From Armatimonadota bacterium (lineage in GTDB: Bacteria > Armatimonadota > Fimbriimonadia > Fimbriimonadales > GBS-DC), in the NCBI GenBank assembly GCA_037444405.1, contig JBBIML010000014.1:45689-109688 (forward strand): DNA of 64,000 nucleotides, in the 5' to 3' direction. This document shows positions 7,259-35,636 of the stretch, one piece after another (the first letter of the stretch is position 1; the number at the start of each line of letters is the position of its first letter). The position numbers and the translations under genes are program-made. The notes beneath the pieces were generated by a model that was given only the letters and a program-made list of their open reading frames with translations, was not told the origin of the DNA and made no database searches.

Positions 7259-8512
7259 TTAGCATCCACTTCCAAAGTTAAACAGCACAATCAGCAGGTC
7301 GGCGTCGTCGACGGTGCCGTCGCAGTTGACATCCACACGCCCCAGATTGGAGCCGCTGTTGCCGAACGCGAACAGCACTGCCAGCAGGTCCGCGTCGTCC
7401 ACGCAGTTGTTGTTGTCCACATCGCCGTTATGCGCGGAGCACCGCGGTCCCGTGTCCAGCAGGAAAACTTCTGTTTTGCCAGTGGCGGCGTGGTAGCCAT
7501 TGCCCACGATGTAGCGTCCATCGGAGGAGATGGCGGACGCCCACTCCAGCCGTGAGCCGTCGGTGAGCAGGGAGGCGTAGGTAACGTTCAGGTCTTCCAT
7601 CCCCGTCTCGGTCCAGCGGAATGCTGCCCATTGGGATTGCGAACCGGGCAGGCGGTCTGACCAGCCGACGATGATGGTGCCATCATAGTTCGCATCCCAG
7701 GCTTCGCCCCATTCGCCGCCCAGCGTGCCCAGGTCCACCATGCCGGTGGATGCGGTCCAGCGGAAGGGACGCGCCGGGGTGAAGCTCGGATCGCCCCACG
7801 CGCCGACCACCACATTCCCGTCGCCTGACACGCCGAGCGCCTCGCTCTGCCCGAAAGCCGGGTTATGAATATCCACCATCCCTGCGGGCGTCCAGCGAAA
7901 GGCGTGGTGGATGCCGGTCGCGTCGCCCGACCAGCCAACAACCACATTGCCGTCGTGCGAAACGGCGCGCGCCACACTTCGGATGCCGCCCGGCAGTGTG
8001 CCCAGATTCACCATCCCATCGCTCTGCGTCCAGCGGAAGGCACGATTGAAGCCGTTGCTGAGCTGGGCAGCGCCCACAATCACCGAGCCGTCATAGTTGG
8101 CGCCCCATGCCCAGCTGGTGGCCCCGCCGAAGGTGCTAAATTGCATAAAAGTGCCGTTCTCCCAGCGGAAACCGCGATAAACGGAGCCGCTGATGAACCC
8201 GTATCCCACAATCACTCGCCCGTCCGCCGACAGCCCCCACGCTTCAGTATCCCGCCCCGATGCGAGCGAACCGATGTTTTGCATGCCCGTGTCGGGCGTC
8301 CAGCGAAAGGCGATATGCGTTTCGGTAACGCCTGCCCACCCGGCCACGACCGTGCCGTCGTCGGAGACGCCGTGCGCCTCCGCATAAGGCGTGCCGAAAG
8401 AGCCAAGCCAGGTGAGCGACTGCCCGAATGTAGCAGGCAGCAGCATCAACACCAGAATCCCGGCGACCAGCGGTCGCACCAATGTACCGAACCCGTTCAT
8501 GCTATGTCTCAT
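7259..8512 (-). CDS. Exported HAF-repeat beta-propeller protein with C-terminal dockerin-like double repeat
   Basis: Repeats A.GVS.DG.VVVG...AFRWT...GM..LGTL; tail GDVDNNNCVDDADLLAVLFAFG...DVNCDGTVDDADLLIVLFNFGSGC; SD AAGGAGG. Confidence 0.88.
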   Translation of the reverse strand: MRHSMNGFGTLVRPLVAGILVLMLLPATFGQSLTWLGSFGTPYAEAHGVSDDGTVVAGWAGVTETHIAFRWTPDTGMQNIGSLASGRDTEAWGLSADGRVIVGYGFISGSVYRGFRWENGTFMQFSTFGGATSWAWGANYDGSVIVGAAQLSNGFNRAFRWTQSDGMVNLGTLPGGIRSVARAVSHDGNVVVGWSGDATGIHHAFRWTPAGMVDIHNPAFGQSEALGVSGDGNVVVGAWGDPSFTPARPFRWTASTGMVDLGTLGGEWGEAWDANYDGTIIVGWSDRLPGSQSQWAAFRWTETGMEDLNVTYASLLTDGSRLEWASAISSDGRYIVGNGYHAATGKTEVFLLDTGPRCSAHNGDVDNNNCVDDADLLAVLFAFGNSGSNLGRVDVNCDGTVDDADLLIVLFNFGSGC

Positions 8513-19789: not shown

Positions 19790-22700
19790 GTGGCTAAGCG
19801 ATGGTGGCTGATTTTGACGGCACTGATCATCGGGAGCGTTGCTTTTGGGCAGAACACGGCAAGCGAGCGTCCGTGGGAGGAGGTGTATCGCAACCGTCCC
19901 AATCGGCACGTGCTGCCGAACGAGCGTCCGCGCACGATTCCGCTCCAGAACTATCGGGAGGTGCCACCCTTCTCCCGCTGGCAGGGGAGCCTCCAGTGGC
20001 AAAAGGGTGGACTGTTCGATCCGCAGCGCTTCCATCAACAGCGGCAATCTCAACCACAGCGTTCGCGCGCGCCGCGCTGGGATCGCGACCTGACCAACGC
20101 GCCCACCGACGAGCTACATCCTGTCTATGCGTCGCGTGCCACCCGCATGTTCTTCGCCAGCAACGCCACAGCTGTCGTGGATGGGCGCCTGGCGAACCCG
20201 GGTCCATACTATCATATCTGGCGCGGCGATCTGGACGACGGCAGCAACCCCGACCTGGGACAGCTGACCAACTACACCCAGATCACGGGTGATACCCCCG
20301 ATGAGCAGTTCTCGTCCCAGATTCAGCCCAGCACCAACGCGAACGGGCACCTCCTCGCCTATGCCTCCCGCTCCGCCGCTGGCAGCTATAACATCATCAT
20401 TCGGAACCTGACCACCAACCAGCGGGTGATTATCACCACCGACAACAACGGCGTGACGCAGAACCTGCGTCCAACGCTGGATCCGGGCGGAGGGCTGGTT
20501 ATTTTCTCTTCGAATCGGCTGGAGGCAGGCGAGACGGAAGCCGACCGCCGATTTCGGCTCTATATGGCACGCGCGGATGGGCGTCCCTTCGATGACGGGC
20601 TCTTCCTGAAACGCCTCACGACCCCTGCCCCTGGCGAGAACGACATCGAACCGGCATGGTCGCCCGATGGCAGTCGGGTGGCGTTCGTGCGAACCTTTGC
20701 GGACGGCAGCAGCTACATCTTTATGCTGGATGTGCGCAACCTCAATATCGGGCAATGGACGAACTTCGTGGATAACAACAATAACCGTCCGCAGGATCGC
20801 CAGCCTACATGGACCACCGACACCGACGGCTCCCTGCGGCTGGTGTTTGCCTCCACGCGCAAGTCGCTCGATAATCAGGGGCGCCACCAGCGACAGCAGC
20901 CGTCGAACAGCGTGGACACCACCAATCGGATTTTCGATATCTATGAGATTGGCACCGACATCCCTGAGGAACTGGGCGCCGTTGCGCTCTCCATCACCGC
21001 CGATCCCAGCACGCCCGCGCTGGCGCGCCCCAACTACCCGGGCGACACCGAGCAGCTGGCAGGTGCCCTGTACCCGACAGGCGCCATCCGCGAGCGCAAC
21101 CGCGTCGCCTACCAGTCCACCCGCCTCAACGAACAACAAAACCAGGGTCCACACGACATCTGGGAGACCTTCCGAACGGACACCATCCCACCCGTAATGG
21201 AGATATTGCCGGTCGTCACCCCGAAAGAGGTCTATCCGCCCGGCTCCAATGTGACCATCCGCATCCGCGCGGTGGACTTCCAGAGCGGGCTGCAGTTCGT
21301 GCGCATCCAGATCAAAGACCCCGATAGCGCCGAACAGGACGAGGAGGGGCTGGAACATAAAATCTATCTTTTCTCGGAGGAGGTGGTTGATCAAAACATT
21401 GTTATTCCTGTGTTTATCGAAATCGGTCAGCAGGCGATTCACCCGGAGACCTATGAGTATAAAGACCCCTATGTGCTGGCGCCGCTGGGCTTCAATGGTC
21501 GCCTGGAGGACACGCTGGCATTGCGGTATGTGCCCGACGACCCGAACAACCCTGATCCCACACAATCGGGCTGGTGGGAGGTCACTTGGCGCACGCCCGA
21601 TGTCGCCAGCGACTTCTACATCGATGTTATCGTGCGCGATAATGCGGGGAATGAGTTCCTCTACGACAACATTTCCGGCTTCACCACGAAGATATTCACA
21701 GGTGGCAACCGCATTCTGCTGGTGTCGGACTATGCGGCGGGACAGATGTTCGTGCAGAACCGAATCGGGGCAGTAGGCAACTCGGCGGGGCGCCCGACAT
21801 GGCTGCCTGTGGAAAGCTACTGGACCGATAACCCGACGGGCAAGCCGCCGTTTGATATTGCCATTAGTCCACCGGGTGTGCCTATCATCGGGGACGGAGC
21901 CATTCCCAGCCCCACGGTACTGCTCGCATTCATTCGCTCCGACACGCTGGGGAGCAACACCACCTACGGCAATCTATACGAGATCTGGCGGGTGCAGTGT
22001 CGGAACCCGATCTCGCCCTCGGTGCTGGCAGGCTATCTACCCCGCTATGAGCGGGAGCCAACCGATTTGCAGGGTGGATTCCGCACCAAGTTGCATGCCG
22101 AGCGTATTGTGGTATGGGCAAGCCCCTACACGGGCGACCTGTGGGCAGGCGCGGGGCATCTGCTGGATCCTGAAATCCAAACACTGCTGCGGAGCTTCCT
22201 GGCAGGAGCAGGGCGCCTGGTGGTCAGCGGTCAGGATGTCGCCTGGGCGCTGAGCCTCGCAGGCGGCACCGCCAACGAGTTCCTCCAGCAGACTTTGCAA
22301 GCGCAGTTCGACACCGATGCAGCCCAGGATGTGTTCCTGCCCATCCCCTACGCCTACCTGCGCCACCAGCTCGACTCCGACGGGCTGGAAACCAATCCTG
22401 ATAATAACGATCCGAACCCGATTGCTTTCAATCCGGGCGGGATGCCCATCTGGTTCATCGAAGATGACGGTACTCAAGGCTCGCCCACCAATCTGCAGAT
22501 CGCCGATCCCGCCACGATGTTGCCCAATAGCGTGATTCTCCGTATTACACCATCCCCACTGATTCCTGGCATCAACAGCGATGGCGCATGGAACCAGATC
22601 TGGCTCGACACCATCTTCACCAACCCGAACGAACGAGCGCCCTACAAGTACACCAACCCCGGCATCACGAACGACCCTCAGCGTCAGCGCGCGGGTACCT

Positions 22701-25252
22701 ACTACGAGAACACAGCCAACAAATCCAAAGTCCTCTACCTTGCTTTCGGGCTGGAAGGTGTTGACTCGGGCTATGAGGATATTGGCGGCATCATCTGGTG
22801 CAACGCCTTCCGCAATAAGGTGCTGCATAACGCTTTCGGCTGGATGACGCACAGCGTGCTGCGCGGCGTCGTGCGCGAGTACGACCCTGAAACCCGCACC
22901 TATCGACCGTTGCCGCGAGCCTTCGTGCGAGTCACGGGCATCCTGCCGCCCAGCGTCAACGGCGTGGAGGTGGGCTACGCCATCACCGACTCGGCAGGTG
23001 AATACACCATCTTCGGAATAGAGGCAGGGCTTTACCTGGTGGACGCCATTCGCCCTGGCTATCGTGTGCAGCACCCGGAGACCGTGATTTTAGTCGCGCA
23101 GGAGTTTGAGCTGAATCTGGTGATGCTGAAAGTGCCGCCCGGGCAAATCAGCGGTCAGGTTATCGATATCAACAATCAGCCCGTGCGCTATGCCCTGGTA
23201 CGAGCCACCAATGTGGACGACCCAACCCTCACCATCGAGGTGTTGAGCGATCCCGACGGCAATTTCCTGATGCCACGCGTGCCAGTGGGTACCTGGAATG
23301 TGACCGTGGTCTCGCTGGCGCTGGGTGGCTACACATTACCGCCCATCCGCCCGCAGCCCGATGGCGTGTTCCGCAATGTGCAGGTGCAAGCAGGTCAGAC
23401 CACGCAACTGCCTGAACCCTTCGTGCTGGAGCCACTGCCGGGCACCATTCGCGGGCAGGTCACCCGCGCCGATAACGGGCAGCCGATTCAGGGCGCGCGC
23501 GTGGTCGCCGTCGCCAATAATGTGGAGCGCGGCTCCGCCACCACCGACGCCAGCGGCAACTACAGCTTCGAGGTGCCCGGCGGCGAATACCAGGTGACGG
23601 CGACGGCGCCCGGATTTGCGCCCAGCACGCAGACTGTCACCGTGCCCCGCGAAGGTGAGGTGGTGGTGAACTTCCAGCTGGCAAAGCTGCCGCCAGGGCG
23701 CGTGACGGGGCGCGTGGTGCGCAAGTTCGGCGGCGCACCGGAGCCGGGTGTTAAGATCGAACTGCTATTTGGCAATACATCCATCTACAGGGCGACCACC
23801 GAACCCGACGGCACCTACACTATCGACCCTGTGGAGCCGGGCGACTATGTGGTGCGCCCGACCAAGACGGGGTTCACCTTCGAGCCGCCCACACGCACTA
23901 TCACGGTTCAACCGAATCAGACCACAACGGTGCCGGACTTCAAGTCGCAGCCGTTGCGCACCTTCTTCCGCGGGCGCAGCCTGGTGTCGGCGCCGTTCGA
24001 TTACAGTCAGGATATTGCCGACCTGCTCGATGTGCCGCCCGACCAGCGGCGCTTCCCCAACTTCCGATTCTTCACCTGGGACACGGTGAACAGCCGCTAT
24101 ATCTTCTATCCTGACGCGCCTGCCAACCGCTTCGCGCTCGGACGCGGCTACTTCATCGAGACCACGCAGGACCTGCCGCTGGCAACCGAAGGCACACCCG
24201 CCGACGAGAGCCAGAGCTTCCCGATACCTCTGCGACGCGGCTGGAACCTGATTGGCACGCCGTTCCGATTCGACATCGACTGGGAGCAGACCCAGGTGAT
24301 TGACCCCGACACCAACACGCCCATCTCCAACGCGACGGCAGTCGGCAAGCAGATTATCGCGAACGCGCTGTGGGGCTATGCGTTTGGCACCTACAACGCC
24401 ACTCGCCGCATGAAAATCTGGGAGGGCTACTGGGTCTACGCCTATAAGGACACCACGCTGCTGATCCCGCCCACAGCGCGGGCGCGCTCGGCGGTCAGTC
24501 GCAGCGTGGACGCACCGACGCCGGGGGGCTGGACGCTCGCGCTGCAGGTGCAATCGGGCGAGCTGATGGATCAGGCGTACATCGGCGTCTCGCGCGGCGC
24601 ATCGCCGGGCTATGACGCCTCGCACGACCTGCTCAAACCGCCGCCCGTTGGGCGCGACTATGTGTATATCAGCATGCCGCGCCTGAACTGGGGCGCGCAG
24701 AGCGGCATGTACGGCGTGGATGTGCAGGCGCCCTCGCGCAGCGCAAGCTGGGAGTTCACCGTCGAGACCACCCAGCCCAATCGCGAAATCACCCTGCGCT
24801 GGCCCAACATCCACCTGCTGCCCCGCTCGGCGAACCTGGTGCTGGTGGACCTGCAGACGGGCGCCCGCCGCTACCTGCGCACCACTGGCTCCTACACCTT
24901 CCGCAGCCCGCAAAACGGTGTCAGCCGATTCCGAATCGAGCTGGCGTCCAGTGCAGGGCTGCTGCGGATTGGCAATGTGCAGGTTACGGGCGGTCGCGGC
25001 AACCAGCGTACCATCACCTTCACCCTGACGGGCGAGGCGAGCGTGGAGGTCAGCGTGCTGGCGGGCGGCAGGGTGGTGCGCCAGCTGCTGACCAGCGCTG
25101 GACGCAGCGCGGGCGTACAACAGGTCAGCTGGGACGGGCGCGACCAGAACGGCATCGCGCTACCGCCTGGCACCTACACCGTCGAAATTCGAGCGGTGAG
25201 CGAGGATGGGCAGGTGGCACGCGCCGCCACCACCATCATCCTCACCCGATAG
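19790..25252 (+). CDS. Large exported protein: PD40/TolB-like propeller, carboxypeptidase-regulatory-like Ig repeats, shared C-terminal module with FlgD-Ig domain
   Basis: Signal peptide; EPAWSPDGSRVAF; repeats G.I.G.V...G.P..GA.V...TD..G.Y; GWNLIGTPF; WDGRDQNGIALPPGTY; ends IILTR; SD GAGGAGG. Confidence 0.85.
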   Translation: MAKRWWLILTALIIGSVAFGQNTASERPWEEVYRNRPNRHVLPNERPRTIPLQNYREVPPFSRWQGSLQWQKGGLFDPQRFHQQRQSQPQRSRAPRWDRDLTNAPTDELHPVYASRATRMFFASNATAVVDGRLANPGPYYHIWRGDLDDGSNPDLGQLTNYTQITGDTPDEQFSSQIQPSTNANGHLLAYASRSAAGSYNIIIRNLTTNQRVIITTDNNGVTQNLRPTLDPGGGLVIFSSNRLEAGETEADRRFRLYMARADGRPFDDGLFLKRLTTPAPGENDIEPAWSPDGSRVAFVRTFADGSSYIFMLDVRNLNIGQWTNFVDNNNNRPQDRQPTWTTDTDGSLRLVFASTRKSLDNQGRHQRQQPSNSVDTTNRIFDIYEIGTDIPEELGAVALSITADPSTPALARPNYPGDTEQLAGALYPTGAIRERNRVAYQSTRLNEQQNQGPHDIWETFRTDTIPPVMEILPVVTPKEVYPPGSNVTIRIRAVDFQSGLQFVRIQIKDPDSAEQDEEGLEHKIYLFSEEVVDQNIVIPVFIEIGQQAIHPETYEYKDPYVLAPLGFNGRLEDTLALRYVPDDPNNPDPTQSGWWEVTWRTPDVASDFYIDVIVRDNAGNEFLYDNISGFTTKIFTGGNRILLVSDYAAGQMFVQNRIGAVGNSAGRPTWLPVESYWTDNPTGKPPFDIAISPPGVPIIGDGAIPSPTVLLAFIRSDTLGSNTTYGNLYEIWRVQCRNPISPSVLAGYLPRYEREPTDLQGGFRTKLHAERIVVWASPYTGDLWAGAGHLLDPEIQTLLRSFLAGAGRLVVSGQDVAWALSLAGGTANEFLQQTLQAQFDTDAAQDVFLPIPYAYLRHQLDSDGLETNPDNNDPNPIAFNPGGMPIWFIEDDGTQGSPTNLQIADPATMLPNSVILRITPSPLIPGINSDGAWNQIWLDTIFTNPNERAPYKYTNPGITNDPQRQRAGTYYENTANKSKVLYLAFGLEGVDSGYEDIGGIIWCNAFRNKVLHNAFGWMTHSVLRGVVREYDPETRTYRPLPRAFVRVTGILPPSVNGVEVGYAITDSAGEYTIFGIEAGLYLVDAIRPGYRVQHPETVILVAQEFELNLVMLKVPPGQISGQVIDINNQPVRYALVRATNVDDPTLTIEVLSDPDGNFLMPRVPVGTWNVTVVSLALGGYTLPPIRPQPDGVFRNVQVQAGQTTQLPEPFVLEPLPGTIRGQVTRADNGQPIQGARVVAVANNVERGSATTDASGNYSFEVPGGEYQVTATAPGFAPSTQTVTVPREGEVVVNFQLAKLPPGRVTGRVVRKFGGAPEPGVKIELLFGNTSIYRATTEPDGTYTIDPVEPGDYVVRPTKTGFTFEPPTRTITVQPNQTTTVPDFKSQPLRTFFRGRSLVSAPFDYSQDIADLLDVPPDQRRFPNFRFFTWDTVNSRYIFYPDAPANRFALGRGYFIETTQDLPLATEGTPADESQSFPIPLRRGWNLIGTPFRFDIDWEQTQVIDPDTNTPISNATAVGKQIIANALWGYAFGTYNATRRMKIWEGYWVYAYKDTTLLIPPTARARSAVSRSVDAPTPGGWTLALQVQSGELMDQAYIGVSRGASPGYDASHDLLKPPPVGRDYVYISMPRLNWGAQSGMYGVDVQAPSRSASWEFTVETTQPNREITLRWPNIHLLPRSANLVLVDLQTGARRYLRTTGSYTFRSPQNGVSRFRIELASSAGLLRIGNVQVTGGRGNQRTITFTLTGEASVEVSVLAGGRVVRQLLTSAGRSAGVQQVSWDGRDQNGIALPPGTYTVEIRAVSEDGQVARAATTIILTR

Positions 25253-25260
25253 TGCGCTTT

Positions 25261-25289
25261 TGCCCGTTCCCCCGCGCGGGGAACGGGCA
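25261..25289. other. Intra-operon stem-loop
   Basis: 12-bp stem tgcccgttcccc/ggggaacgggca, 8 nt after the stop; no U-tract on the + strand. Confidence 0.65.
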
Positions 25290-25342
25290 GGAAGCAAGCT
25301 GTTCACAAAGAAAATAGACAACGGTAAGGAGGAACGACCAGA

Positions 25343-27142
25343 GTGAGAACACGGAGACGACGAATCTGGGCAAAACGCTGGAGTCTGGCGGGCGTTGCCA
25401 GCATGCTGCTGATGTGGCTGCTGGCGCCATTTGGCATGCCGCCGGCACAGGCACAGCTGGTGCAACTGCCGCGCATTGCGGTCATCGACTTCCAGAACAA
25501 AAGCGGCTACGGCGGCGCCAGCATCGCGCGCGCCGCCACCGACGCCATCGCCAGCGAGTACCAGAAAACGGGGCGCTATGAGGTGCTGGCGCGGGGCGAA
25601 ATCGAGCAGCAGCTCAAAGACCTCGATTTAGCTCCCCCGCTGAGCAAAACGGGCTACCTGCGACTGGGACGCGCCCTCCAGCTCGAATCGATTGTGGCAG
25701 GCGATGTGGAAGCCATCACCTTCACTGGCTCCCCGAAGCAGGCGCAGGTAACCCTCACGGTCAAGGTGATCGATGTGGCATCAGGTGAGCCGGTGAACGG
25801 CGCGGTCGTGACAGGCTCCAGCAACCCGCGCCCGGGCTACAGCGGCGACGACGATACCCTGGTGCTGGAGGCGGTGCGCAACGCCGCCTTCGAAGCGGTG
25901 CGTACCATCCTGAACTACACCATCCCTGAAGCGACCGTGCTGACCACCCGCGCGGGCAAGGAGGTGCTGCTCAATCGCGGCATTCGCGGCGGGCTGAAAC
26001 CCGGCATGGAGATGATTGTCATTCGCAACAACGAAGAGGTCGGACGCATCCGCATCACCGAAGTGTCCGATAGTGACGCCGTGGGCGTGATCATCCAGTC
26101 GCTGCGCGGCATCCAGACCGAAGACAAGGCGCGCGCCGTGTACGAAATACCTTCGGTCAAAGTCAAAGCCGGCAAAGTAGTTAAAGAAGAGCCGCGCAGT
26201 CGCGCTGAGCGCAACCGGGCACTCAAAGCGCTGGGTCCGATCCTTGTGCTGGGACTGATTGCGTTCGGCATTGCACGCGCTTCATCTGGCGGCAACACAC
26301 CCGTGCAGGATGTCCTCGCCGAAGCGGGTGCCGACGGCAACTTCGAACCCTTCGTGCGAGTCTCATGGAAGACCACCCTCTTCGCCAAGAGCAACCGCGA
26401 CCAGATCCAGTGGCAAATCTACCGCTCCGACTTCATCGATATCGACGGCAACGGCAATATGATCCCGGTGGGTGTGGTGCCGGGCAATCAGCACTGGTTT
26501 ATTGACACCACTGTGCCGCGCGTGGTGAACTACGCCAGCCTGCCGCGCGAGGGCAGTGAGGACCTGGGGCTGGAGGAGGTCGATACCGCGCCGGGCGTCG
26601 CGCCAGGACGATCCTACACCTACCAGCTGGCTCTGGTCTATCGTGAGGTGCGTGATGTGGCAGGTGGTGGCACGGGAGGCGGTGGCGGGCAGCAGGTGGT
26701 TTTCCTGCTGTCGGACCGTGTGCGCTCCGGGCAGGTGACCGTCATTCAGCCCGTGCAGCTGCTGACCCCTGTCCAGCGCAGCGAGGATGTGGACCCGAAA
26801 GACATCCTCTTCAGCTGGCTGGCATCGGAGGGCGCCAACGCCTACCGTATTGAGGTCTCCACCGATCCCACCTTCCGCGACCGCAGCCGAACCTTCGTCT
26901 CGGCGGAGATTCTCTCCACAGCGGTGGGCGGTAGCCCCGTTAGCCCGCCTGACCGAATCAATATTGAATCTGCGCTGCTGCAGCGGCTGGGACTGGCGGG
27001 TAAGCGCGTCACGCTCTACTGGCGTGTGGGCGCCCGCAACCTGAACGATAACCCCGGTCCAATACCGGGTCCGGGCGGTCTGCGCTATGTGTGGAGCCGA
27101 CCGTTCGAGTTCACCACGCAGGAGCTGCCGCCGCCACCCTGA
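25343..27142 (+). CDS. CsgG/FlgT-fold exported protein with internal hydrophobic segment and Fn3-like domains
   Basis: Signal peptide; RIAVIDFQNKS...TGRYEVLAR..I...LGRALQLESIVAGDV...VKVIDVASGE; FlgT-C-like VLLNRG...GLKPGM...VGRIRITEV; LGPILVLGLIAFGIA; ends PPPP. Confidence 0.75.
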   Translation: MRTRRRRIWAKRWSLAGVASMLLMWLLAPFGMPPAQAQLVQLPRIAVIDFQNKSGYGGASIARAATDAIASEYQKTGRYEVLARGEIEQQLKDLDLAPPLSKTGYLRLGRALQLESIVAGDVEAITFTGSPKQAQVTLTVKVIDVASGEPVNGAVVTGSSNPRPGYSGDDDTLVLEAVRNAAFEAVRTILNYTIPEATVLTTRAGKEVLLNRGIRGGLKPGMEMIVIRNNEEVGRIRITEVSDSDAVGVIIQSLRGIQTEDKARAVYEIPSVKVKAGKVVKEEPRSRAERNRALKALGPILVLGLIAFGIARASSGGNTPVQDVLAEAGADGNFEPFVRVSWKTTLFAKSNRDQIQWQIYRSDFIDIDGNGNMIPVGVVPGNQHWFIDTTVPRVVNYASLPREGSEDLGLEEVDTAPGVAPGRSYTYQLALVYREVRDVAGGGTGGGGGQQVVFLLSDRVRSGQVTVIQPVQLLTPVQRSEDVDPKDILFSWLASEGANAYRIEVSTDPTFRDRSRTFVSAEILSTAVGGSPVSPPDRINIESALLQRLGLAGKRVTLYWRVGARNLNDNPGPIPGPGGLRYVWSRPFEFTTQELPPPP

Positions 27143-27160
27143 GCGCGGCACGATTCTCAA

Positions 27161-27190
27161 GCCGTTTCGGGAGCGACTTCCCGAAACGGC
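27161..27190. other. Intra-operon stem-loop
   Basis: 12-bp stem gccgtttcggga/tcccgaaacggc. Confidence 0.65.
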
Positions 27191-27255
27191 ATACCCGTTT
27201 GAGCGTCTGAACAGATGAGCGTGCGATTGGGAACCAATCGGGAGGGAAGCAACCG

Positions 27256-30198
27256 ATGAGATGGATGTGGCGACTGTGGCTTGGATGGGTGCTGATTCTG
27301 GGCTGCGCAGCAGCCCAGACGCTGACACCTGACGATGTGGTGCGCGGCGAGATACTGCTGACGATGCGCGCGGGCACTTCGATAGAGAAGGCGCGCGCGC
27401 TGGCAAACAGCGTGAATGCCGATTTGCGCCCGATCCGCGTGCCCGACACCTATGTGCTGCGCCTGCGCGACCAGCAGGGCGTAACGGACGCCGCGCTGCT
27501 GGAGCGGGTTCAGCAGGCGGTGGAGCGGCTCAAAAACGAGCCTGATGTGCGGTATGTCCGCCCGCACTGGCGCGCCCGCCTGATGGATGTGCCCAACGAC
27601 CCGCGCTACGGCGAACAGTGGGCGCTTCCGATGATCCGCGCACCCGAAGCTTGGGATCAGGAAAAGGGGCAGGCAGGTGTCCGAATCGCCATCATCGATG
27701 ATAACTTCGAACGCAACCATCCCGATCTCGCAGGTCGCTTCGATCCGCTTTCGCGCAACTTTGAAGCCGACCCTCCCGATGAGAACATCGATCCCGCGCC
27801 CGGCTCCTTCTTCTCACACGGGACACTGGTGATGGGTGTAGCCGCCGCCAATACCAATAACGGCGTCGGGATTGCAGGTCTATGCTGGGAGGGAGTTACG
27901 GTCGTGGCGCTGACCACCACCAAGCAGAGCTCTGGCTTCCTCAACGGCGAGAATATCCTTGAAGCGATGCAGTATGTCGTGGATAACGCACGCGACGGCA
28001 GCGGCAATCAGGTTATTCACACTGTTAACATGAGTTTCGGTAGCGGCTTCCCTGACCCTCAGGAAAACAGCCTGATCCAGCAGATGTATCAGCGGGGCGT
28101 GGTGCCCGTCGCTTCAGCTGGCAACGAGAACAGCTCGAGCCCACGCTACCCCAGCGATTTTGATAATGTGATTCGGGTGTCCGCTGTTGGTCCCACAGGG
28201 CTGAAAGCTTCTTATTCGAACTTTGAGCGCATCGATCTGGCGGCGCCCGGCGGCGATCAGCAGTCCCGCCTGCAGGATGGGGTGCTTAGCACCGCGATAG
28301 GTGGCAGCTACGAATATGTGCAGGGCACTTCCTTCTCCTCGCCTTATGTGGCGGCGGCGGTGGCGCTGCTGATCTCGGCTGGTGCGCCCGTGCATGACCC
28401 CAATCGGGACCCCATCCCCCCTGCCCAGGAGGCGCTGCAGGAGACGGCTGACTCGCAGGGGCGGGCGGTGCCCGATCCAGAATTGGGCTGGGGCATCATC
28501 GATGTGGGTTCAGCCATTCGGGGCTTCGGCGGCGCCAGCATCACCATTGTAAGCCCCGCGAACAATACCTTCACCGACACCCGACGCATGCGAATCAATG
28601 TGATTGTGCGTCGCAGCACACTGCCCCAGATTCACCTCTTCTTCATGGGTGAAGAAATCCCGCGCTCGCAGTGGGAGCCGTTCGCCAGCGTCTCCAGCGA
28701 TGGCAAAACCATCACCATTTTCGGCTATGAGCTGGTCGCACCAGGTGAGGGGCGCTTCGACTTCACCGTAACAGCAGTGGGACAGGACGGCAACACAGCC
28801 ACGCAAACGGCGACGATTAATGTCCGCTCCCGTCAGCAGCCAGCAGGTCTGGCAATGTTCGCCACACCCTATCGTGTGAGCGGGGCGCCCGAAGAGATTT
28901 TCGGTGCGGATGCGATTCTGGCGCGCTACCTGCCATCTCAGGGGCGCTACGCGCGCTACTCTGGCAGCGGCACGCGCGAGCCGGAAGCGAGCTTCAATCC
29001 GCCCGGCGTGCGCGTGCGCCCTGAAGGGAGCGCGATTCCCACCCCGCCACGCGGACTGGGCTACTTCCTGCGCACGAACAGCCCCACCTTCATTCTGGGC
29101 GACGAGTTCATCGATCCGAACACCGCCTACCTGATCCCACTGGAGCCAGGCTGGAACATGATTGGCAATCCCTTCCCATTCTCGGTACCCTGGAGTGCGT
29201 GCGAGATCGAGGTGGAAGGGCAGGCAGGCGTGCGCCAGCGGCTCAATATCCTGGAGGCTGCTGACAAAGAGTACATTCGCCCGCAAATCTATCGCTACAT
29301 CACGCTCACGGGCGAATATACATGGCGCACAGCGCCGCTGGGCGAGCTGTTGCCCTGGCAGGCGCACTGGGTCAGGGTACTCAAGCCCTGCACGCTGATT
29401 GTGCCGCCGCTGGGCACAACCCGCAGCCGTGACGAAGCGGCATCCGAGAACCCGCGCGTTACACCGGACACGCGCGACGGCTGGCTGATCCGCCTCATCG
29501 CTCGCAGCGGCGACCGGGAAGACGCCAACAACTTCATCGGGGTCAGCCCGCGCGCCCGCGACGAGATGGGCAGCGAAGATGTGGAGAAGCCACCGCTGTT
29601 CCAGTCGTATGTGCAGCTGCGTGTGATCGAGCCGCGCAGCCGCGCTGCGCTCGCTCAGGACCTGCGACGGGCTGCTAAACGCCTGATGCGCTGGGAGCTG
29701 GAAGTTACCACCGACAAGCCCAACGCGGAGGTCACACTCCGCTGGCAACAGGAGGTGCCGCTGCCGACCAGCATGCGACTGACGCTGGTGGATAGCCTCA
29801 CAGGGCAGCGCATCTCGATGAATCGCCAGAGCGCGTACACCTTCCGCACCGACGAGAACAGTCGGCGGCGGTTTATTATCGAGGCGCAACCCTCGCGCCT
29901 GAGCCAGCTGCGCATCACGAACTTTACCATCGCCCGCACGCGCGGCAATCAGATCACTGTCCAGTACGCGCTGAATGCGACCGCCAGCGTGCAGGTGCTG
30001 GTTCAGGATTCGGCGGGGCGAACAATTGCGCGTCTAACAGGCGGTACCCGCTCGGCAGGGCTGAACACCGTCACATGGACAGGGCGCACCGATTCGGGTA
30101 TCGCCGTGCCGCCAGGCACTTATCAGATTCAGATTATCGCGACGGGCGAGGAGGGCGACACCGCCCGCGCTGTGCGCCCGCTCGTCATCACCCGCTAA
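27256..30198 (+). CDS. Exported S8 subtilisin-like serine protease with the shared C-terminal module and FlgD-Ig domain
   Basis: Prodomain; triad IAIIDD / SHGTLVMG / QGTSFSSPYVA; ASAGNE; GWNMIGNPF; ends ARAVRPLVITR. Confidence 0.92.
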   Translation: MRWMWRLWLGWVLILGCAAAQTLTPDDVVRGEILLTMRAGTSIEKARALANSVNADLRPIRVPDTYVLRLRDQQGVTDAALLERVQQAVERLKNEPDVRYVRPHWRARLMDVPNDPRYGEQWALPMIRAPEAWDQEKGQAGVRIAIIDDNFERNHPDLAGRFDPLSRNFEADPPDENIDPAPGSFFSHGTLVMGVAAANTNNGVGIAGLCWEGVTVVALTTTKQSSGFLNGENILEAMQYVVDNARDGSGNQVIHTVNMSFGSGFPDPQENSLIQQMYQRGVVPVASAGNENSSSPRYPSDFDNVIRVSAVGPTGLKASYSNFERIDLAAPGGDQQSRLQDGVLSTAIGGSYEYVQGTSFSSPYVAAAVALLISAGAPVHDPNRDPIPPAQEALQETADSQGRAVPDPELGWGIIDVGSAIRGFGGASITIVSPANNTFTDTRRMRINVIVRRSTLPQIHLFFMGEEIPRSQWEPFASVSSDGKTITIFGYELVAPGEGRFDFTVTAVGQDGNTATQTATINVRSRQQPAGLAMFATPYRVSGAPEEIFGADAILARYLPSQGRYARYSGSGTREPEASFNPPGVRVRPEGSAIPTPPRGLGYFLRTNSPTFILGDEFIDPNTAYLIPLEPGWNMIGNPFPFSVPWSACEIEVEGQAGVRQRLNILEAADKEYIRPQIYRYITLTGEYTWRTAPLGELLPWQAHWVRVLKPCTLIVPPLGTTRSRDEAASENPRVTPDTRDGWLIRLIARSGDREDANNFIGVSPRARDEMGSEDVEKPPLFQSYVQLRVIEPRSRAALAQDLRRAAKRLMRWELEVTTDKPNAEVTLRWQQEVPLPTSMRLTLVDSLTGQRISMNRQSAYTFRTDENSRRRFIIEAQPSRLSQLRITNFTIARTRGNQITVQYALNATASVQVLVQDSAGRTIARLTGGTRSAGLNTVTWTGRTDSGIAVPPGTYQIQIIATGEEGDTARAVRPLVITR

Positions 30199-30211
30199 CG
30201 GAGGAGAGACT

Positions 30212-32944
30212 ATGATGCGGTTCTGCATATCTGGATGGGTTTTAAGCGTTATGCTGGTCGTCACGAGCCTGACACCTTTATGGGGGCAGCGCGTGTACGA
30301 TCCCTTCAGCTTCCCCTGCTGCTGCCCCACCGATCAGGGCGGCTGCGTAGAGAACCCTGTAAGCGACGATTATGCGGCGATTAACATCACCAATGGCGTG
30401 CTGGGCGCCACTTTGGGGCTGGGTGGCACTATTCAGTGGTACACAGGTTGCTTCCCGATGACCAATACGCGGTGCATCACGCTGCAGGCGGAAGGTAGCA
30501 TCCAGTTCGGCACCAGCGGTGGTACCAGCCTGCTGCGCGGTAATGATGATAATATCGCGATGACCTCCGGCTACCCATGGGCAGTCTATCCTGGTGGAAT
30601 TTATATCAGCATGCAGGAACAGCGTGGGAACCAGACGCGCACCTTCGTGTGGGGGCGCGAACAGGGCGCTCCCAGCCTAATCTTCGATCGCGCCTGGCCC
30701 GGTGTCAGCGGCGTCTATATTCGGCGCCAGTGGTATGTGGAGGGCTGGCAGACCGATATGCGCATCGAGCTGATCCAGTCGGTGGCGCGTATCGAGCTGC
30801 GCGTGCGCAACACCGGCACCGAAGCGGCGTCGCTTGCGCTGCGCCTGGCATCCGATGTGGAGGTGGGTGTCGAGGAAGGTGTGGACCCGAACGGCGCGTC
30901 GCTGCCCCCCTATGTCTATGTGCAGGGTCAGCGCCCCATTAAAGTGGACACCGATTTGCGCGGTGTGCAGGTGCCGCCTGCGGTGGAGTTCTATCTTTCA
31001 CGCGGCGATCTCAACGGCGCGTCGCGCTACATCCTGCGCCCGATGCCCGGCTTCGAAGACGCCACCCCCATCGACCGCCTGGTGTTCGGTGAGTGGTTCT
31101 TCATTCAGGCGACCACCAACTGGGAGCCAGTGCTGTTCCCCGATAGATTTATCAGCGATGTGGCGGTTAACATGTTCGTGAATCCGCGCAACTTCGCGCC
31201 GGGTCAGGAGCGCGTGTTCGTGTTCTATGTGGTGCTGACCCCCGTCGATATCGATGTGCAGCCGCCTCTGGCAGTCGGGGTGGAAACCCTGCCCGTCATC
31301 GAACCGAACCAGCAGGATCTGTCCCAGCTGGCGAACGGCGGCGTGTTCGATGTGATTGCCTCGGTCACCAACATGTTCCATGTGGTGGACAAGGAGGTTG
31401 ACCTGCGCAATGTGACGGTCGATCTGGCGCTGCCTGCGGGGCTGAGCCTGGCATCCGGGGAAACGCGCACCAAAAGCATCGCGCAGATTCAACCGGAATC
31501 GACCGGTTCGGTTCGGTGGCGCGTGGTTGCCGATCCGAAGGCAGTGGGCTTTTCGACCATCCGTGTCTCGGTGAACGCGCCGCCCGCGCCGCCCAAAACG
31601 GTCAGCCGCACGATTTTGATTTCCGCCACCGCGAGCCGCGAGCTGAAACGCGGATTCCAGATAGTTTCGATCCCCTTCACTACGACGGCGCCGCTGGTCG
31701 ATGTGCTGGGTCTACCTGAAGGCACCTACCTTGCTAAGCGCTGGAACCCCGACCGGGAAGTGTACGAGACGGTGGATGTCCTGCAGCCCGGCATCGGGTT
31801 CTGGCTCTACCTGCCCAACGAGGGCACAAACATCACCATGAGCAATGTGCGCTTCCCGCCTGCGGTCTTCACTGCCAGCGTGCCGATCCGCCTCAGCCGC
31901 GGATGGAACCAGATTGGCAATCCCTATCCGTACCCGCTGGTGCTGGGGCAGATCGTGGTGGTAAGTGCGAGCGATCCACGCACCAGCCTCAGCTTCTTCG
32001 AAGCTGCCCAGCGTGGGGTCATTCGCGGCGTCATCTACTACTGGGACGAGTTCTTCGGCGAATATAAGTTCACTTCCGACCCCAACACGCCCCTGATACC
32101 GCACAGGGGGTACTGGATCAAGTGCAACGACGATATTGATCTGGTGTTTCCGCCCGTGTTCATGCCTGGCACAGGATTCGGTGGCGTGATCGGCGGACGC
32201 TCCGCCTCGGAGCAGCCAAATCGCCCCAATGAGTGGCGTCTGCAGCTGATTGCTCGCACCGAGCGCGGCGAGGACAGCCAGAATTATATCGGTCTCACCA
32301 GCGGTCGCTCGGCAGGTGAGGTGGAGGAGCCGCCCGCACCGTTAGCTGAGGTGCCCGTGCGCCTGACCATTCTCAAACCGGGCACAAACGCGCCCCTGAT
32401 GCAGGATGTGCGTCCCGCCTCCGCCACGCGCCACACCTTCGAACTGCTGGTGGAGGCGCCAGCGGGCACAGAAGTGAGCCTGCGCGCGCCTAATGTGCGC
32501 ACCGTGCCGCGCACCTACCGCCTGCGCCTGACCGATCAAAGCACGGGGCGCACGGTCGACTTGCGCAACACGCCCGAATATCGCTTCACTTCCAGCGGGC
32601 GCAACCGATTCACGCTGAGCGTGGAGCGCGGCGCGCGCGGTGGTGCGCTCATCACCAGCATCAGCGTGGGCGCAGCGGGGCGTGGCGCAAACAGCGTCAG
32701 CATCTCCTATGTGCTGGCGCAGGACGCCCAGACCAATGTGCAGATTCTGGGCGCGGACGGACGCCTCATCGCCAGCCTGCAACAGGGGCGCGCTGCCACA
32801 CGCGGCGTGAACACCGTCGTCTGGAACCTGCGCGATAACGCCGGACGCGCTGTGCCACCTGGCACCTATCGTGTGCAGGTCGAAGCCCGCGACTCCGACG
32901 GGCAGATCGCGCGCGCGGTACGACCGCTTATCGTAACGCGCTAA
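30212..32944 (+). CDS. Large exported protein (Cys-rich N-terminus, beta-rich) with the shared C-terminal module and FlgD-Ig domain
   Basis: Signal peptide; PCCCPTDQGGC; GWNQIGNPY; WNLRDNAGRAVPPGTY; ends ARAVRPLIVTR; SD GGAGGAG. Confidence 0.85.
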   Translation: MMRFCISGWVLSVMLVVTSLTPLWGQRVYDPFSFPCCCPTDQGGCVENPVSDDYAAINITNGVLGATLGLGGTIQWYTGCFPMTNTRCITLQAEGSIQFGTSGGTSLLRGNDDNIAMTSGYPWAVYPGGIYISMQEQRGNQTRTFVWGREQGAPSLIFDRAWPGVSGVYIRRQWYVEGWQTDMRIELIQSVARIELRVRNTGTEAASLALRLASDVEVGVEEGVDPNGASLPPYVYVQGQRPIKVDTDLRGVQVPPAVEFYLSRGDLNGASRYILRPMPGFEDATPIDRLVFGEWFFIQATTNWEPVLFPDRFISDVAVNMFVNPRNFAPGQERVFVFYVVLTPVDIDVQPPLAVGVETLPVIEPNQQDLSQLANGGVFDVIASVTNMFHVVDKEVDLRNVTVDLALPAGLSLASGETRTKSIAQIQPESTGSVRWRVVADPKAVGFSTIRVSVNAPPAPPKTVSRTILISATASRELKRGFQIVSIPFTTTAPLVDVLGLPEGTYLAKRWNPDREVYETVDVLQPGIGFWLYLPNEGTNITMSNVRFPPAVFTASVPIRLSRGWNQIGNPYPYPLVLGQIVVVSASDPRTSLSFFEAAQRGVIRGVIYYWDEFFGEYKFTSDPNTPLIPHRGYWIKCNDDIDLVFPPVFMPGTGFGGVIGGRSASEQPNRPNEWRLQLIARTERGEDSQNYIGLTSGRSAGEVEEPPAPLAEVPVRLTILKPGTNAPLMQDVRPASATRHTFELLVEAPAGTEVSLRAPNVRTVPRTYRLRLTDQSTGRTVDLRNTPEYRFTSSGRNRFTLSVERGARGGALITSISVGAAGRGANSVSISYVLAQDAQTNVQILGADGRLIASLQQGRAATRGVNTVVWNLRDNAGRAVPPGTYRVQVEARDSDGQIARAVRPLIVTR

Positions 32945-32951
32945 AATTCAC

Positions 32952-32976
32952 GGGGGTAGCCGTCAACGCTGCCCCC
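32952..32976. other. Intra-operon stem-loop
   Basis: gggggtagc/gctgccccc, 9 bp including one G-U pair. Confidence 0.5.
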
Positions 32977-32999
32977 AAACCAAACAGGGAGGCAAATCG

Positions 33000-33689
33000 G
33001 TGAAACGGACTGTTCTGACCGGGGCACTCATGATTCATCTGCTGCTCGCAGGCGCGTTCGCCAGCACGCGCGAGCTGGTCATCTTGCCCTTCGGCATGGG
33101 CAGCGGCGTGCAACAGCCGCAGGATTTCAACCTGAATACGGAGCTGACGAACGCGCTCTATGCCCAGCTGAAGGCGATCCCCGACCTGTATGTGATGCGC
33201 TTCAAGGAGACGAACCCAGCGGTGCGCCGTGCGCTGGACGAGAACCGCCTGCGCCGCGACCGCCTGAACCCGCCCTTTAATGTGCGTGAGGCGGATGGCA
33301 CATGGCGCTCCGCCCGAATCGGGCAGATTCTGGGCGTGACCTATGCGCTGGCGGGCAATATCGAGGAGTTCCGCTATGATCCCGACACCCGAACGGCGAC
33401 CATCACGGTGAGCATGGACCTGGTGCAGGTGTCGGACGGCACCGTGCTGGTCTCGCTGGCGGAGACGGGTCAGGGACGCCTGAGTGGCGACGACCCGAAC
33501 ACCGCTTATATAGCCGCGATTGCCAGCGTCGCCAAGAAGCTGGGCGCGTCGCTGCAGGAGCGGTTGACCCCACCTGCACCCGCCGAGCCGCCCAAAACAC
33601 CGAAAGTGTCCATCCGCCGCACGGAGCGAGCCACTGCTGCCATTTTTGGACTGCTGATTCTGGTGGGGTTGCGCCTCACCTTTTTCTAA
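33000..33689 (+). CDS. Small CsgG/LpoB-fold exported protein with C-terminal hydrophobic anchor
   Basis: Signal peptide; LVILPF...IGQILGVTYALAGNIEEF...SMDLVQVSDG; Pro/Lys linker, then ATAAIFGLLILVGLRLTFF. Confidence 0.7.
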   Translation: MKRTVLTGALMIHLLLAGAFASTRELVILPFGMGSGVQQPQDFNLNTELTNALYAQLKAIPDLYVMRFKETNPAVRRALDENRLRRDRLNPPFNVREADGTWRSARIGQILGVTYALAGNIEEFRYDPDTRTATITVSMDLVQVSDGTVLVSLAETGQGRLSGDDPNTAYIAAIASVAKKLGASLQERLTPPAPAEPPKTPKVSIRRTERATAAIFGLLILVGLRLTFF

Positions 33690-33692
33690 CGC

Positions 33693-35636
33693 ATGCGAAC
33701 TGGGTTGTTGCGCAGGGCGCGTTTGAGCTGGGCAGGGAGCCTGTGGCTGGTTCTCTGCCTGCTTGCTCATGGCGGTTCCGGCACCATTCGGCTCACGGCA
33801 TACCCCACTGCGCTCGTGGCGGATGGCGCGTCTTCCGTCACGCTCACCGCTGAAGTGCGCACCGCGCAGGGCAAACCGGTGCCCGACGGCACTCAGGTTA
33901 CCTTCAGCACCACGCTGGGCACTCTGCGCGAATCGGTGGTTCCCACCGAAGGCGGTGTGGCGCGCGCGACGCTGATTGCCAGCCAGCTGCCCGGCGTCGC
34001 TCTTGTCACCGCCACCGCGCTGGGGCAGGGGCTTGTGGCGCAGACGCAGGTGATGATGGTGCGCGACGCCAGCGAGCTGCGCACCGCCACCGACTATGTG
34101 CAGGTAACAGCGTCTGACTATCTGGCTTACGCGAACGAACAGCGTGTGATTGCCGCCAGCGGGCGCGACAAAGGCGCAACCATCCAGTACGGCTTCATCC
34201 GCATCGAAGCCGACGACCTGCAACTGCTGGTGGATGACCTGCAGGTGAAAGCCCGCAACGCGACGCTCCACTACGGACCTGCCACGCTCAGCTTCGATGA
34301 GCTTGCCTGCAACCTGCGCACGGGCGACGGCTACGGGACTGTTCAGCAGGAAGGACGATGGCAGGTGATGCGCGTTCAGAGCGCCCGCGCGACCCCTGTG
34401 CAGGAGCCGCTCCCGCCAGAAATGTTCCGCTTCGAAGACATCTCCCAATCGGAGATGGTGATCAAGGCGGAGCAGATATGGTTCTATCCGGGCGAGCGGT
34501 TGCAGTTCCATCGCGCCGATTTTTATGTGGGTGCGGTGCGCGTGATGAGCCTGCCGCTCTATTCGCACAGCCTGTGGGGTGGTGTGGGTACCGATACCCT
34601 GATTGGCGTGCAGGGCAGTCAGCTCTATCTCGATCTGCCCTATTATTATGCGCTCAAGCCGGGTCAGGTGGGCGCGCTGCGGTTGCGCACGGCGCAGCGG
34701 GGCGGTCGCGGCGTCAGCAGCGCGCGCGGGCTGTTCCTTGATCTGGAGCATGAGTACCGCTTCGGGCTGGGCAGGGGGAGTTTCACGGTGTCCAGCCTCG
34801 CTCGCGAGGATTGGGGCATCAGCTGGCGCCACTATCAGCCGCTGGGCGCGTCGATGCGCCTGAACCTATGGCTCGACTCGCCCGCGCACAGGGGTCTGTT
34901 CGCCTCTGCGCAGCTGTCGCATCAGGGCAGGAGCTACTCCACCGGACTGACGCTCGCGGGCAGCACCTTCTGGGAGGGTGCCCGCGCCCGCACCCTGCGC
35001 GCCGAGTTCTATGTGGAGAGCAACCCGCGCAAGGTGACTAACTGGCCGCTGCGCCAGAGCCTCTCGCTGAATCTCAGCTCCGCGCGCACGCACCTGAGCG
35101 GTTCATCGGGCACGCGGCGCGACGGGGTGGGACTGCGCGCCCGCTGGACGCTCGTGCCGCTCGATCTGGACAGCCGTACCACGCTGACAGGCGGGTTGAG
35201 CATCGGGCGCTTTCTGGGCAACCTGCCGAACGCGGGCTGGGAACTGCTCGGCTCGCTGGGCATCTCGCATGCGCTGGGCAGCGGCGCTCTCACGCTCACC
35301 TACGACTATGCGCAGGACCCGCTCGGCATCAACTTGCTGGGGCAGCACCGACTGTCGGGCAGCCTCAACTGGACAATCGGTGACCGCCTCTACGCCACCG
35401 CCTACGGCAGCCGCTCGCTGGATCGGGACGCCACCAGCCTCATCGCCGACCTCTCATGGCGGCTGGGCACACGCTGGCGCATCGGCACGGGCATCACCTG
35501 GCAGCAGTTTCACGGCTCTGCCTTTCGCGACCAGACCTACACCATCGCCTATCGGCTCGGATTCCGCGAACTCGCGCTCACATGGTCCACTTTTAGCCGC
35601 CGCTGGAGCTTTGATCTGCTGACCGTTTTTTATTGA
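33693..35636 (+). CDS. Outer-membrane protein: invasin/Big_1 Ig domain, OstA-like jellyroll and LptD-like beta-barrel
   Basis: LVADGASSVTLTAEVRTAQGKPVPDGTQVTFSTTLG; IEADDLQL; IKAEQIWFYPGERLQFHRADFYVG..VMSLP; YLDLPYYY; amphipathic strands; aromatic C-terminus VFY. Confidence 0.72.
   Translation: MRTGLLRRARLSWAGSLWLVLCLLAHGGSGTIRLTAYPTALVADGASSVTLTAEVRTAQGKPVPDGTQVTFSTTLGTLRESVVPTEGGVARATLIASQLPGVALVTATALGQGLVAQTQVMMVRDASELRTATDYVQVTASDYLAYANEQRVIAASGRDKGATIQYGFIRIEADDLQLLVDDLQVKARNATLHYGPATLSFDELACNLRTGDGYGTVQQEGRWQVMRVQSARATPVQEPLPPEMFRFEDISQSEMVIKAEQIWFYPGERLQFHRADFYVGAVRVMSLPLYSHSLWGGVGTDTLIGVQGSQLYLDLPYYYALKPGQVGALRLRTAQRGGRGVSSARGLFLDLEHEYRFGLGRGSFTVSSLAREDWGISWRHYQPLGASMRLNLWLDSPAHRGLFASAQLSHQGRSYSTGLTLAGSTFWEGARARTLRAEFYVESNPRKVTNWPLRQSLSLNLSSARTHLSGSSGTRRDGVGLRARWTLVPLDLDSRTTLTGGLSIGRFLGNLPNAGWELLGSLGISHALGSGALTLTYDYAQDPLGINLLGQHRLSGSLNWTIGDRLYATAYGSRSLDRDATSLIADLSWRLGTRWRIGTGITWQQFHGSAFRDQTYTIAYRLGFRELALTWSTFSRRWSFDLLTVFY

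Follow-up and report, generated by a model that had tools for sequence, protein, structure and literature searches.

An ancient Armatimonadota operon that joins a paralogue of the LptD barrel to CsgG/PelC-like proteins and to exported proteins with a shared C-terminal module

The stretch of DNA analysed here (the window) comprises 64,000 nucleotides of an Armatimonadota bacterium (contig JBBIML010000014.1, positions 45,689 to 109,688; assembly GCA_037444405.1). Between its positions 19790 and 35636 it carries six genes, here called P1 to P6, that a first-pass annotation had described as co-oriented and closely spaced and had read as a candidate undescribed secretion or surface-display system. 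The six open reading frames (ORFs) were indeed found there in the same orientation, separated by 3 to 113 nt (90, 113, 13, 55 and 3 nt in order; Table 1). Together they form an ancient operon that is kept across the phylum Armatimonadota, and its last gene encodes a barrel, P6, that profile comparison identifies as a paralogue of LptD, the barrel that inserts lipopolysaccharide (LPS). In Pfam, P1 matches PD40, four copies of CarboxypepD_reg and a C-terminal FlgD_ig; P3 matches Peptidase_S8 and FlgD_ig; and P4 matches FlgD_ig alone. P6 matches Big_1/Invasin_D3 at residues 31-123, with no family over the about 520 residues beyond that match, and P5 has no Pfam match. Signal peptides were judged by eye from the N-termini. 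The signal peptide of P3 (27256-27320) contains LILGC, which fits a lipobox, so that P3 may be a lipoprotein, unlike P1, P2, P4 and P5.

Table 1. Genes and subregions of the six-gene operon, in positions of the window.
Feature	Position	Strand	Description
P1	19790..25252	+	1820 amino acids (aa), exported; PD40 (TolB-like) propeller, four CarboxypepD_reg, A-B-C module (ORF, Pfam)
Shared module in P1	23894..25249	+	Domains A, B, C; GWNLIGTPF motif at 24239-24265 (alignments)
P2	25343..27142	+	599 aa; signal peptide, CsgG/PelC/TolB_N-like domain (residues 41-159)
P2, K/R stretch	26195-26230		
P2, hydrophobic helix	26231-26275		Followed by about 290-300 aa, beta-rich, with terminal PPPP
P3	27256..30198	+	980 aa; prodomain, S8 subtilase (residues 140-413), immunoglobulin (Ig)-like spacer, A-B-C module
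Module domain A of P3	28843..29412	+	Model residues 1-190; GWNMIGNPF at 29149-29175; no Pfam family
Module domain B of P3	29482..29892	+	Model residues 214-350, beta-sandwich; no Pfam family
Module domain C of P3	29914..30189	+	Model residues 358-449, Ig-like FlgD_ig; protein ends in conserved xTR
P4	30212..32944	+	910 aa, exported; Cys-rich N-terminus of no known family, A-B-C module
Shared module in P4	31565-32941	+	Domains A, B, C (alignment)
P5	33000..33689	+	229 aa; signal peptide, PelC/LpoB/TolB_N-like domain, Pro-rich linker
P5, K/R stretch	33603-33629		
P5, C-terminal hydrophobic helix	33630-33686		P6 starts 3 nt past the P5 stop
P6	33693..35636	+	647 aa; signal peptide
P6, Big_1 Ig domain	33783-34061		
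P6, beta-jellyroll	about 34098-34571		AlphaFold2 (AF2), Foldseek, hhalign
P6, barrel	about 34602-35621		About 22-24 strands (AF2, Foldseek, hhalign)

The common C-terminal module that had been noted on three proteins with unrelated N-termini holds up well. Pairwise alignment of the P1, P3 and P4 tails gives 32-37% identity over about 400 aa, and when 22 further copies are added the similarity begins about 45 aa more upstream, bringing the module to about 450 aa. When the source genome (2.68 Mb, 98.9% complete) is translated in six frames, exactly 5 of its 23,385 ORFs of 60 aa or more match the hidden Markov model of the module: P1, P3, P4, and two encoded elsewhere, one WD40/Fn3-rich (contig C9) and one unassigned (contig C13). 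The match always covers the whole module, and this occurrence is far beyond chance. An AlphaFold model from 25 sequences (predicted local distance difference test score, pLDDT, 89.4; predicted template modelling score, pTM, 0.77) divides the module into three beta domains, A, B and C. FlgD_ig falls on domain C in all 25 copies, and domains A and B have no Pfam match at E<=0.001 among them; other Pfam families match the copies weakly, with match positions given for member 1 only. With the whole module, Foldseek returned generic tandem Ig matches only (TM-score <= 0.2), and domain A found unnamed clusters only in the ESM Atlas. The wide VIA-align fold search, which covered domain C, ranks highest the C-terminal domain of the S8 protease Vpr (8jmw_A; Z 13.9, root-mean-square deviation (rmsd) 2.1, 96 residues aligned), followed among others by the C-terminal domains (CTDs) of PorU (Z 11.7) and PorZ (Z 10.0) and by FlgD (Z 9.7), with many Ig domains near Z 10. 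A sortase-like role for P3 was considered and rejected, being an analogy only; the structure that its tail matches best comes from Vpr, which is an S8 protease too.

Six ORFs, from five loci in families f44, f23, f30 and f7, stop 7-39 residues past domain A and have no Ig tail. What all cases examined have retained is thus domain A rather than the Ig tail.

The gene that closes the set was expected to encode an Ig-bearing barrel, and the AF2 model of P6 (24 sequences; pLDDT 84.5, pTM 0.64) has that shape: a signal peptide, the Big_1 Ig domain, a jellyroll (about residues 136-293) and a large barrel (about residues 304-643) with about 22-24 strands by DSSP. Foldseek searches with this model gave LptD for all of the 14 best chains listed, aligned over the full length (E 1e-14 to 2e-11), the next matches being the FimD and PapC ushers. 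P6 has no Pfam LptD or LptD_N match, and Pfam LptD finds nothing above its cut-off anywhere in the source genome. Contig C22 holds a 745-aa ORF with a sub-threshold LptD match (15.6 bits). This C22-type family is present in 114 of 121 genomes of the phylum, 2 of its 14 members pass Pfam LptD_N, and its profile matches solved LptD chains in the PDB (8h1r_A, E 2.3e-18; 7omm_A, 1.2e-8; 5iva_A, 2.1e-7) as well as LptA chains; as a single sequence the C22 protein has no relevant PDB match and no Pfam family. The neighbours of the C22 gene (an ECF sigma factor, a VTT/DedA protein and a beta-eliminating lyase) are uninformative on its role. When the P6 and C22 families are aligned to each other by hhalign, they prove homologous with a probability of 99.4% (E 1.1e-21, 510 columns). 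The LptD likeness seen at first thus stands in a changed form: since a closer LptD family exists in the same genomes, P6 is, as far as profiles tell, a paralogue rather than the LptD orthologue of the cell, and coexists with a separate canonical LptD of the C22 type. With a duplicated LptD as its barrel, the apparatus would derive from the LPS translocon. LpxC was found in the source genome and in 118 of 121 genomes of the phylum, and its distribution does not discriminate between the two LptD paralogues. The ORF at C7:106099-106386 (-) and its relatives, conserved and of about 500-580 aa, resemble the jellyroll of the canonical LptD and may represent an LptA/LptC-type bridge.

P2 and P5 had been described as two proteins of CsgG fold, and part of this description can be kept. 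P2 passes Pfam CsgG (PF03783) with 25.0 bits at a cut-off of 20.8, though over profile positions 8-151 of 210 only, and BLASTP detects a weak similarity between P2 and P5 (E 1e-4; 24% identity over 177 aa). Some homologues of the P2/P5 type are named CsgG/HfaB family by NCBI. P5 itself is better described as PelC-type. Its 110 representative relatives, where scanned, match LpoB, GNA1162, CsgG and once LptE, all at weak scores, and its family profile retrieves from the PDB 5t10/5t11 (E 1.4e-5; titled "uncharacterized protein", which we take to be PelC), 2iqi, and 9h80_C, "PelC" (E 0.032). The P2 family profile has no PDB match. LptE (PF04390) is matched neither by P5 nor by 18 of 19 scanned homologues, the remaining homologue reaching 17 bits (E 0.0097) at a cut-off of 23. 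Read by eye, neither P2 nor P5 has a Cys in its signal peptide, and hence neither has a lipobox. At a strict threshold, 43 of 55 P2 and 22 of 46 P5 orthologues have a hydrophobic alpha-helix behind the domain, with a K/R-rich stretch in front of the helix; the net charge is about +2.6 ahead of the helix and between 0 and -1.5 beyond it. This arrangement, with the positive charges on the side of the exported domain, is conserved in orthologues and runs opposite to what the positive-inside rule requires of an inner-membrane anchor. The segment may be an alpha-helical anchor spanning the outer membrane. Neither protein supports a beta-hairpin pore of the CsgG type: the profile match is partial and the hydrophobic segment is alpha-helical, and both argue against such a pore. 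Apart from P5 itself, the source genome has one P5-like gene (C32:18505-20175 (-), in locus L012), in which the LpoB/PelC-like domain is fused to tetratricopeptide repeats (TPR); the same architecture also lies beside module genes in genomes of the FCB (Fibrobacterota, Chlorobiota, Bacteroidota) group.

Co-occurrence and synteny had been proposed as the refuting test of the first reading, and module, CsgG-like gene and barrel do co-occur and are syntenic across the phylum. Among 251 Armatimonadota genomes, the source genome (G000) included, the P6 family is found in 242, the CsgG-like P2 in 244 and the module in 232; single genomes hold up to at least seven scored module matches, seven being the most that were scored per genome, and up to 102 first-look candidates. 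Twenty loci from 19 genomes and 17 families were fetched; they were chosen with coordinates known and are therefore not an unbiased sample. Nineteen of them are centred on P6. Of these, 14 also include P2, 12 have the P5 gene immediately before that of P6, nine have one to four module genes placed between P2 and P6, and four (families f23, f8, f24 and f11) show P6 standing alone. By a hand count among the listed genomes, the genes for P2 and P6 share a contig and are no more than 20 kb apart in 75, share a contig but are far apart in three (all f23), and occupy different contigs in 41. The order CsgG-like gene, module genes, small partner, barrel is retained in many families. The module genes of the operon have orthologues of their own in the fetched loci: P3 in nine (after P2), P4 in eight, and P1 in four (before P2).

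P6 and the module are both missing from five f6 genomes (G046, G125, G161, G229 and G197). We do not rely on this apparent co-loss, because f6 matches are weak throughout and G046 lacks a canonical-LptD match too; divergence may explain the blanks. Split or interrupted genes, which may reflect frameshifts or faulty assembly, are seen in some relatives: G105 has its P4 orthologue spread over two overlapping frames (L045, 7815-10545), G133 has P6 divided between two ORFs (L059, 7052-9239), and in-frame stop codons interrupt P6 in G225 and G050 and P2 in G102 and G090.

The type IX secretion system (T9SS), whose cargo also carries an Ig-like CTD, was sought in the genome, and the earlier expectation that no complete T9SS lies elsewhere in it was borne out. 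The best match to SprA (TIGR04189) in the source genome scores 43 bits against a cut-off of 200. SprA is above cut-off in none of 101 Armatimonadota genomes, nor in the one WS1 genome tested, which holds the full cluster, and is above cut-off in all four module-bearing FCB-group genomes that served as positive control. PorV, GldK, GldM and PorU likewise gave nothing above cut-off in the source genome, in a search without positive control that did not include GldL and GldN. Armatimonadota are thus without the T9SS translocon.

The module itself extends beyond the phylum. A pattern scan with the five-copy module alignment, one genome per species, gave 75 loci, of which 15 belong to Calditrichota, KSB1/Zhuqueibacter, Bacteroidota, Ignavibacteria, Neomarinimicrobiota and one alphaproteobacterium; five further loci were grouped with these by tail type, and none of the resulting 20 has a P5 or P6 match. 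The remaining 55 (Armatimonadota-lineage, Zipacnadia, WS1, HR15 and three untitled) have P2, P5 or P6 within 10 kb in 48 cases, a count that is in part circular, owing to the way in which untitled records were assigned. TIGR04183, the T9SS type A sorting domain, falls on domain C in 12 of 12 tested tails from the non-Armatimonadota loci (30-41 bits, cut-off 23) and in none of the three window tails (P1, P3 and P4) at E<=0.01; PF18962 matches 1 of 25 module copies (E 0.035). Judged by these profile matches, domain C is a homologue of T9SS type A sorting domains. Because the homologous tails of the FCB group pass TIGR04183 and SprA is absent here, the tail in the window would be a diverged T9SS-type sorting domain in a phylum that lacks the translocon. 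To that extent the first reading has gained support; P1, P3 and P4, which it called cargo, are conserved orthologues and may be subunits instead. At five of the 20 non-Armatimonadota loci (L111, L113, L116, L121 and L134), where the module genes encode giant T9SS-CTD proteins with the A-B-C module, CsgG-family genes, often with TPR and often paired, lie within 10 kb of the module gene. All six ORFs examined at these loci pass the Pfam CsgG cut-off (37-66 bits), in genomes whose CsgG-family genes number just 2-13 per genome; the Ignavibacteria genome has two, and these lie together inside the module locus.

No published description of this system was found in the literature on the Armatimonadota outer membrane and secretion, on T9SS, and on FlgD Ig-like tails. 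Among known systems, LptD-LptE (5iv9, 4q35, 8h1r and 7omm) is like ours in the Lpt-type jellyroll and large barrel of P6, in the homology of P6 to the LptD of the phylum, and in the small alpha/beta partner gene, P5, directly upstream of the barrel. P6 differs as a second copy, with an extra N-terminal Big_1 Ig domain and a smaller barrel (about 22-24 strands against 26), and P5 differs in being no lipoprotein and PelC-like rather than detectably LptE-like. The jellyroll of LptD carries acyl chains. PelC is a lipoprotein that forms a dodecameric ring around the outer-membrane barrel PelB and serves polymer export. By sequence, P5 and the N-domain of P2 belong with PelC and CsgG to the TolB_N/LpoB/PelC/CsgG-N fold group, and they too are encoded with a barrel; they differ in lacking a lipid anchor and in the helix after the domain, P2 has a C-terminal extension, and the barrel is of LptD and not of PelB type. 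With T9SS, whose cargo is anchored to A-LPS (anionic LPS), the likeness lies in the Ig-like C-terminal domain, the whole A-B-C module being found on T9SS cargo of Calditrichota, KSB1, Bacteroidota and Ignavibacteria, and in the tail-bearing protease P3, which recalls PorU. The core proteins below cut-off, the window tails unmatched by TIGR04183 and the family members without an Ig tail set our system apart.

The nearest parallel comes from Bacteroidota. According to a preprint, the LPS translocon of that phylum, expanded by up to eight additional subunits that include an Ig-rich periplasmic ring protein, exports surface lipoproteins (bioRxiv 10.64898/2026.10.03.756453); the preprint also cites a disputed report on an LptD homologue of Borrelia. 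As described there, the expanded translocon shares with our locus an LptD-type barrel, Ig-rich subunits (on both sides of the outer membrane) and, on the reading proposed below, the delivery of proteins to the surface. In Bacteroidota the canonical LptD does both jobs and the cargo are lipoproteins, whereas here a dedicated paralogue is found, known so far from its genes, and the associated proteins have ordinary signal peptides (with one possible lipobox, in P3) and a C-terminal module. A diderm envelope is described for one member of Armatimonadota in PMC11535203.

From this we propose, tentatively and as the likeliest of several readings though at slightly less than even odds, that an outer-membrane complex built on the LptD paralogue P6 exports or anchors the module-bearing proteins. 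P5, and perhaps P2, are predicted to sit on the periplasmic side of the P6 barrel as a plug or ring, by analogy with LptE in LptD and with PelC around PelB; the P5 gene is tightly coupled to P6, the P2 gene is linked, and the N-domain of P2 is homologous to P5. Such a complex would move module-bearing proteins to the cell surface, hold them there, or both, with domain A as the part that it presumably recognises. P1, P3 (an S8 protease and possibly a processing enzyme) and P4 would be conserved partners or first clients, and the module proteins encoded elsewhere (WD40, LVIVD or Ig-rich) further clients. A more specific version, possible but more doubtful, holds that the T9SS-less Armatimonadota export their proteins with T9SS-type tails and display them through a machine that arose from the LPS translocon by duplication, with PelC-like rings that may be held by alpha-helical anchors in the outer membrane, and with domain A, a new C-terminal domain, as the recognised part; it would then be an outer-membrane secretion and display system not described before. 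As to function, be it protein display, glycolipid export or a structural complex, we infer it.

Several observations weigh against this proposal. The association of P2, P5, P6 and the module is read from gene positions, and the contacts between them are postulated. Plain co-occurrence cannot discriminate, because P2, P6, the module, canonical LptD and LpxC are all near-universal; synteny can, and in families f23, f33, f11, f8 and f4 the genes for P2 and P6 either are not linked or are found on separate contigs in all genomes sampled. Family f26 has P2 and P6 but a module match in none of its 12 genomes. P1, P3 and P4 are conserved orthologues and so may be subunits rather than variable cargo. 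CsgG-family partners stand beside the module even where T9SS exports, so P2 and P5 need not be a channel. For the P6 barrel, VIA-align ranks 22-strand TonB-dependent transporters (Z 14-17, about 310-320 residues aligned, rmsd about 4.7) above LptD (Z 13.9, 308, 5.2), and the P6 family profile finds no solved LptD in the PDB, its only matches there being invasin/intimin through the Ig domain. Finally, the jellyroll retained in the P6 model suggests a lipid-like substrate.

This last point leads to a rather unlikely alternative, in which what P5 and P6 export, whether or not P2 takes part, is no protein but a second lipid or glycolipid (a variant of LPS or an anchor lipid), while the module proteins cross the outer membrane otherwise and then attach to the product, perhaps processed by P3. 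The Lpt-type jellyroll would be explained, the near-universal LpxC makes the supply of glycolipid universal, PelC-type rings serve polymer export, and the tail is homologous to T9SS sorting domains, which end linked to A-LPS. Against it, neither the operon nor its flanks hold genes for lipid or sugar biosynthesis (a dedicated inner-membrane ATP-binding cassette transporter or bridge was not searched for), and in the nine loci mentioned above the module genes are embedded in the operon, with machinery genes on both sides. It is still less probable that P1 to P6 make up a fixed structural or tethering complex, such as an outer-membrane-to-wall tether or the base of a surface lattice, loosely like Tol-Pal, with the module as an assembly domain that docks P1, P3 and P4 on a P2/P5/P6 core. 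The orthologues of P1, P3 and P4 do keep a fixed order across families, all parts are near-universal in the phylum, the source genome has only five module proteins, and the PD40/TolB-like repeats of P1 go together with TolB_N-like domains in P2 and P5; the LptD complex of Bacteroidota, as described in the preprint, also has up to eight extra subunits, one of them a lipoprotein of five Ig-like domains. Yet the larger genomes, with their many scored and first-look module candidates, carry the module behind unrelated N-termini (WD40, LVIVD, Ig). Unrelated N-termini on one tail are typical of a sorting or anchoring tag, and in FCB phyla the module sits on T9SS cargo.

Two further explanations fare worse. 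That P6 is simply the ordinary LptD of the phylum and P5 a substitute for LptE, with surface-protein genes that merely adjoin the LPS translocon, would agree with the Foldseek ranking, with the near-universal and mostly single-copy state of P6, and with the lack of a Pfam LptD match above cut-off in the source genome; it is very unlikely and largely refuted by the C22 family, which is closer to canonical LptD in its match to solved LptD, its spread and its LptD_N matches, and by the P6 profile, which finds no solved LptD by sequence, the two families being distinct paralogues. Hardly probable at all is the T9SS-like scheme of the first-pass annotation, with P2 and P5 as oligomeric outer-membrane pores of CsgG type that pass CTD-tagged cargo. 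It can point to the CsgG match of P2, to the CsgG/HfaB names of some homologues and to the resemblance of the Ig-like tail to the PorU and PorZ CTDs, and has to contend with the partial profile match, the lack of Cys or lipobox in both proteins, the helix after the domain, the PelC type of the nearest solved relatives of P5, the six ORFs of other families that have no Ig tail, and the window tails that TIGR04183 does not match. The export or anchoring of module-bearing proteins by a P6-based complex remains the reading that we prefer.

Upstream the operon is bordered by rpsA and coaE, and downstream by genes for a small membrane protein, a tocopherol-cyclase-like protein and a GMC oxidoreductase. 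A promoter and terminator scan found sites no commoner than in shuffled sequence (3 against 3.8, and 5 against 9.9). Elsewhere in the window, two exported repeat proteins, one of them a WD40 propeller (7259-8512 (-) and 43850-45592 (-)), have in common a Cys-terminated, dockerin-like double motif, …DVNxDGxVDDADLLxVLFxFGxGC, a second C-terminal tag that is unrelated to the A-B-C module. At 60001-62000 the guanine plus cytosine content is 0.538, against 0.60-0.67 in the rest of the window.

How proteins without lipid anchors are delivered to and retained at the surface of diderm Terrabacteria is, to our knowledge, largely unknown, and the locus offers a testable candidate: a core gene set of the phylum in which the LPS-inserting barrel has been duplicated and joined to exported proteins. 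For annotation, the minimal result is that there are two LptD paralogues per genome, of which one is canonical. If our proposal is right, LptD-type barrels would be a recurrent platform for the export of surface proteins, alongside the reports on Bacteroidota and Borrelia; T9SS sorting domains would prove to predate T9SS or to have outlived it; and domains A and B, neither of them described before, would be defined along with their CsgG-family partners both in Armatimonadota and in FCB-group phyla.

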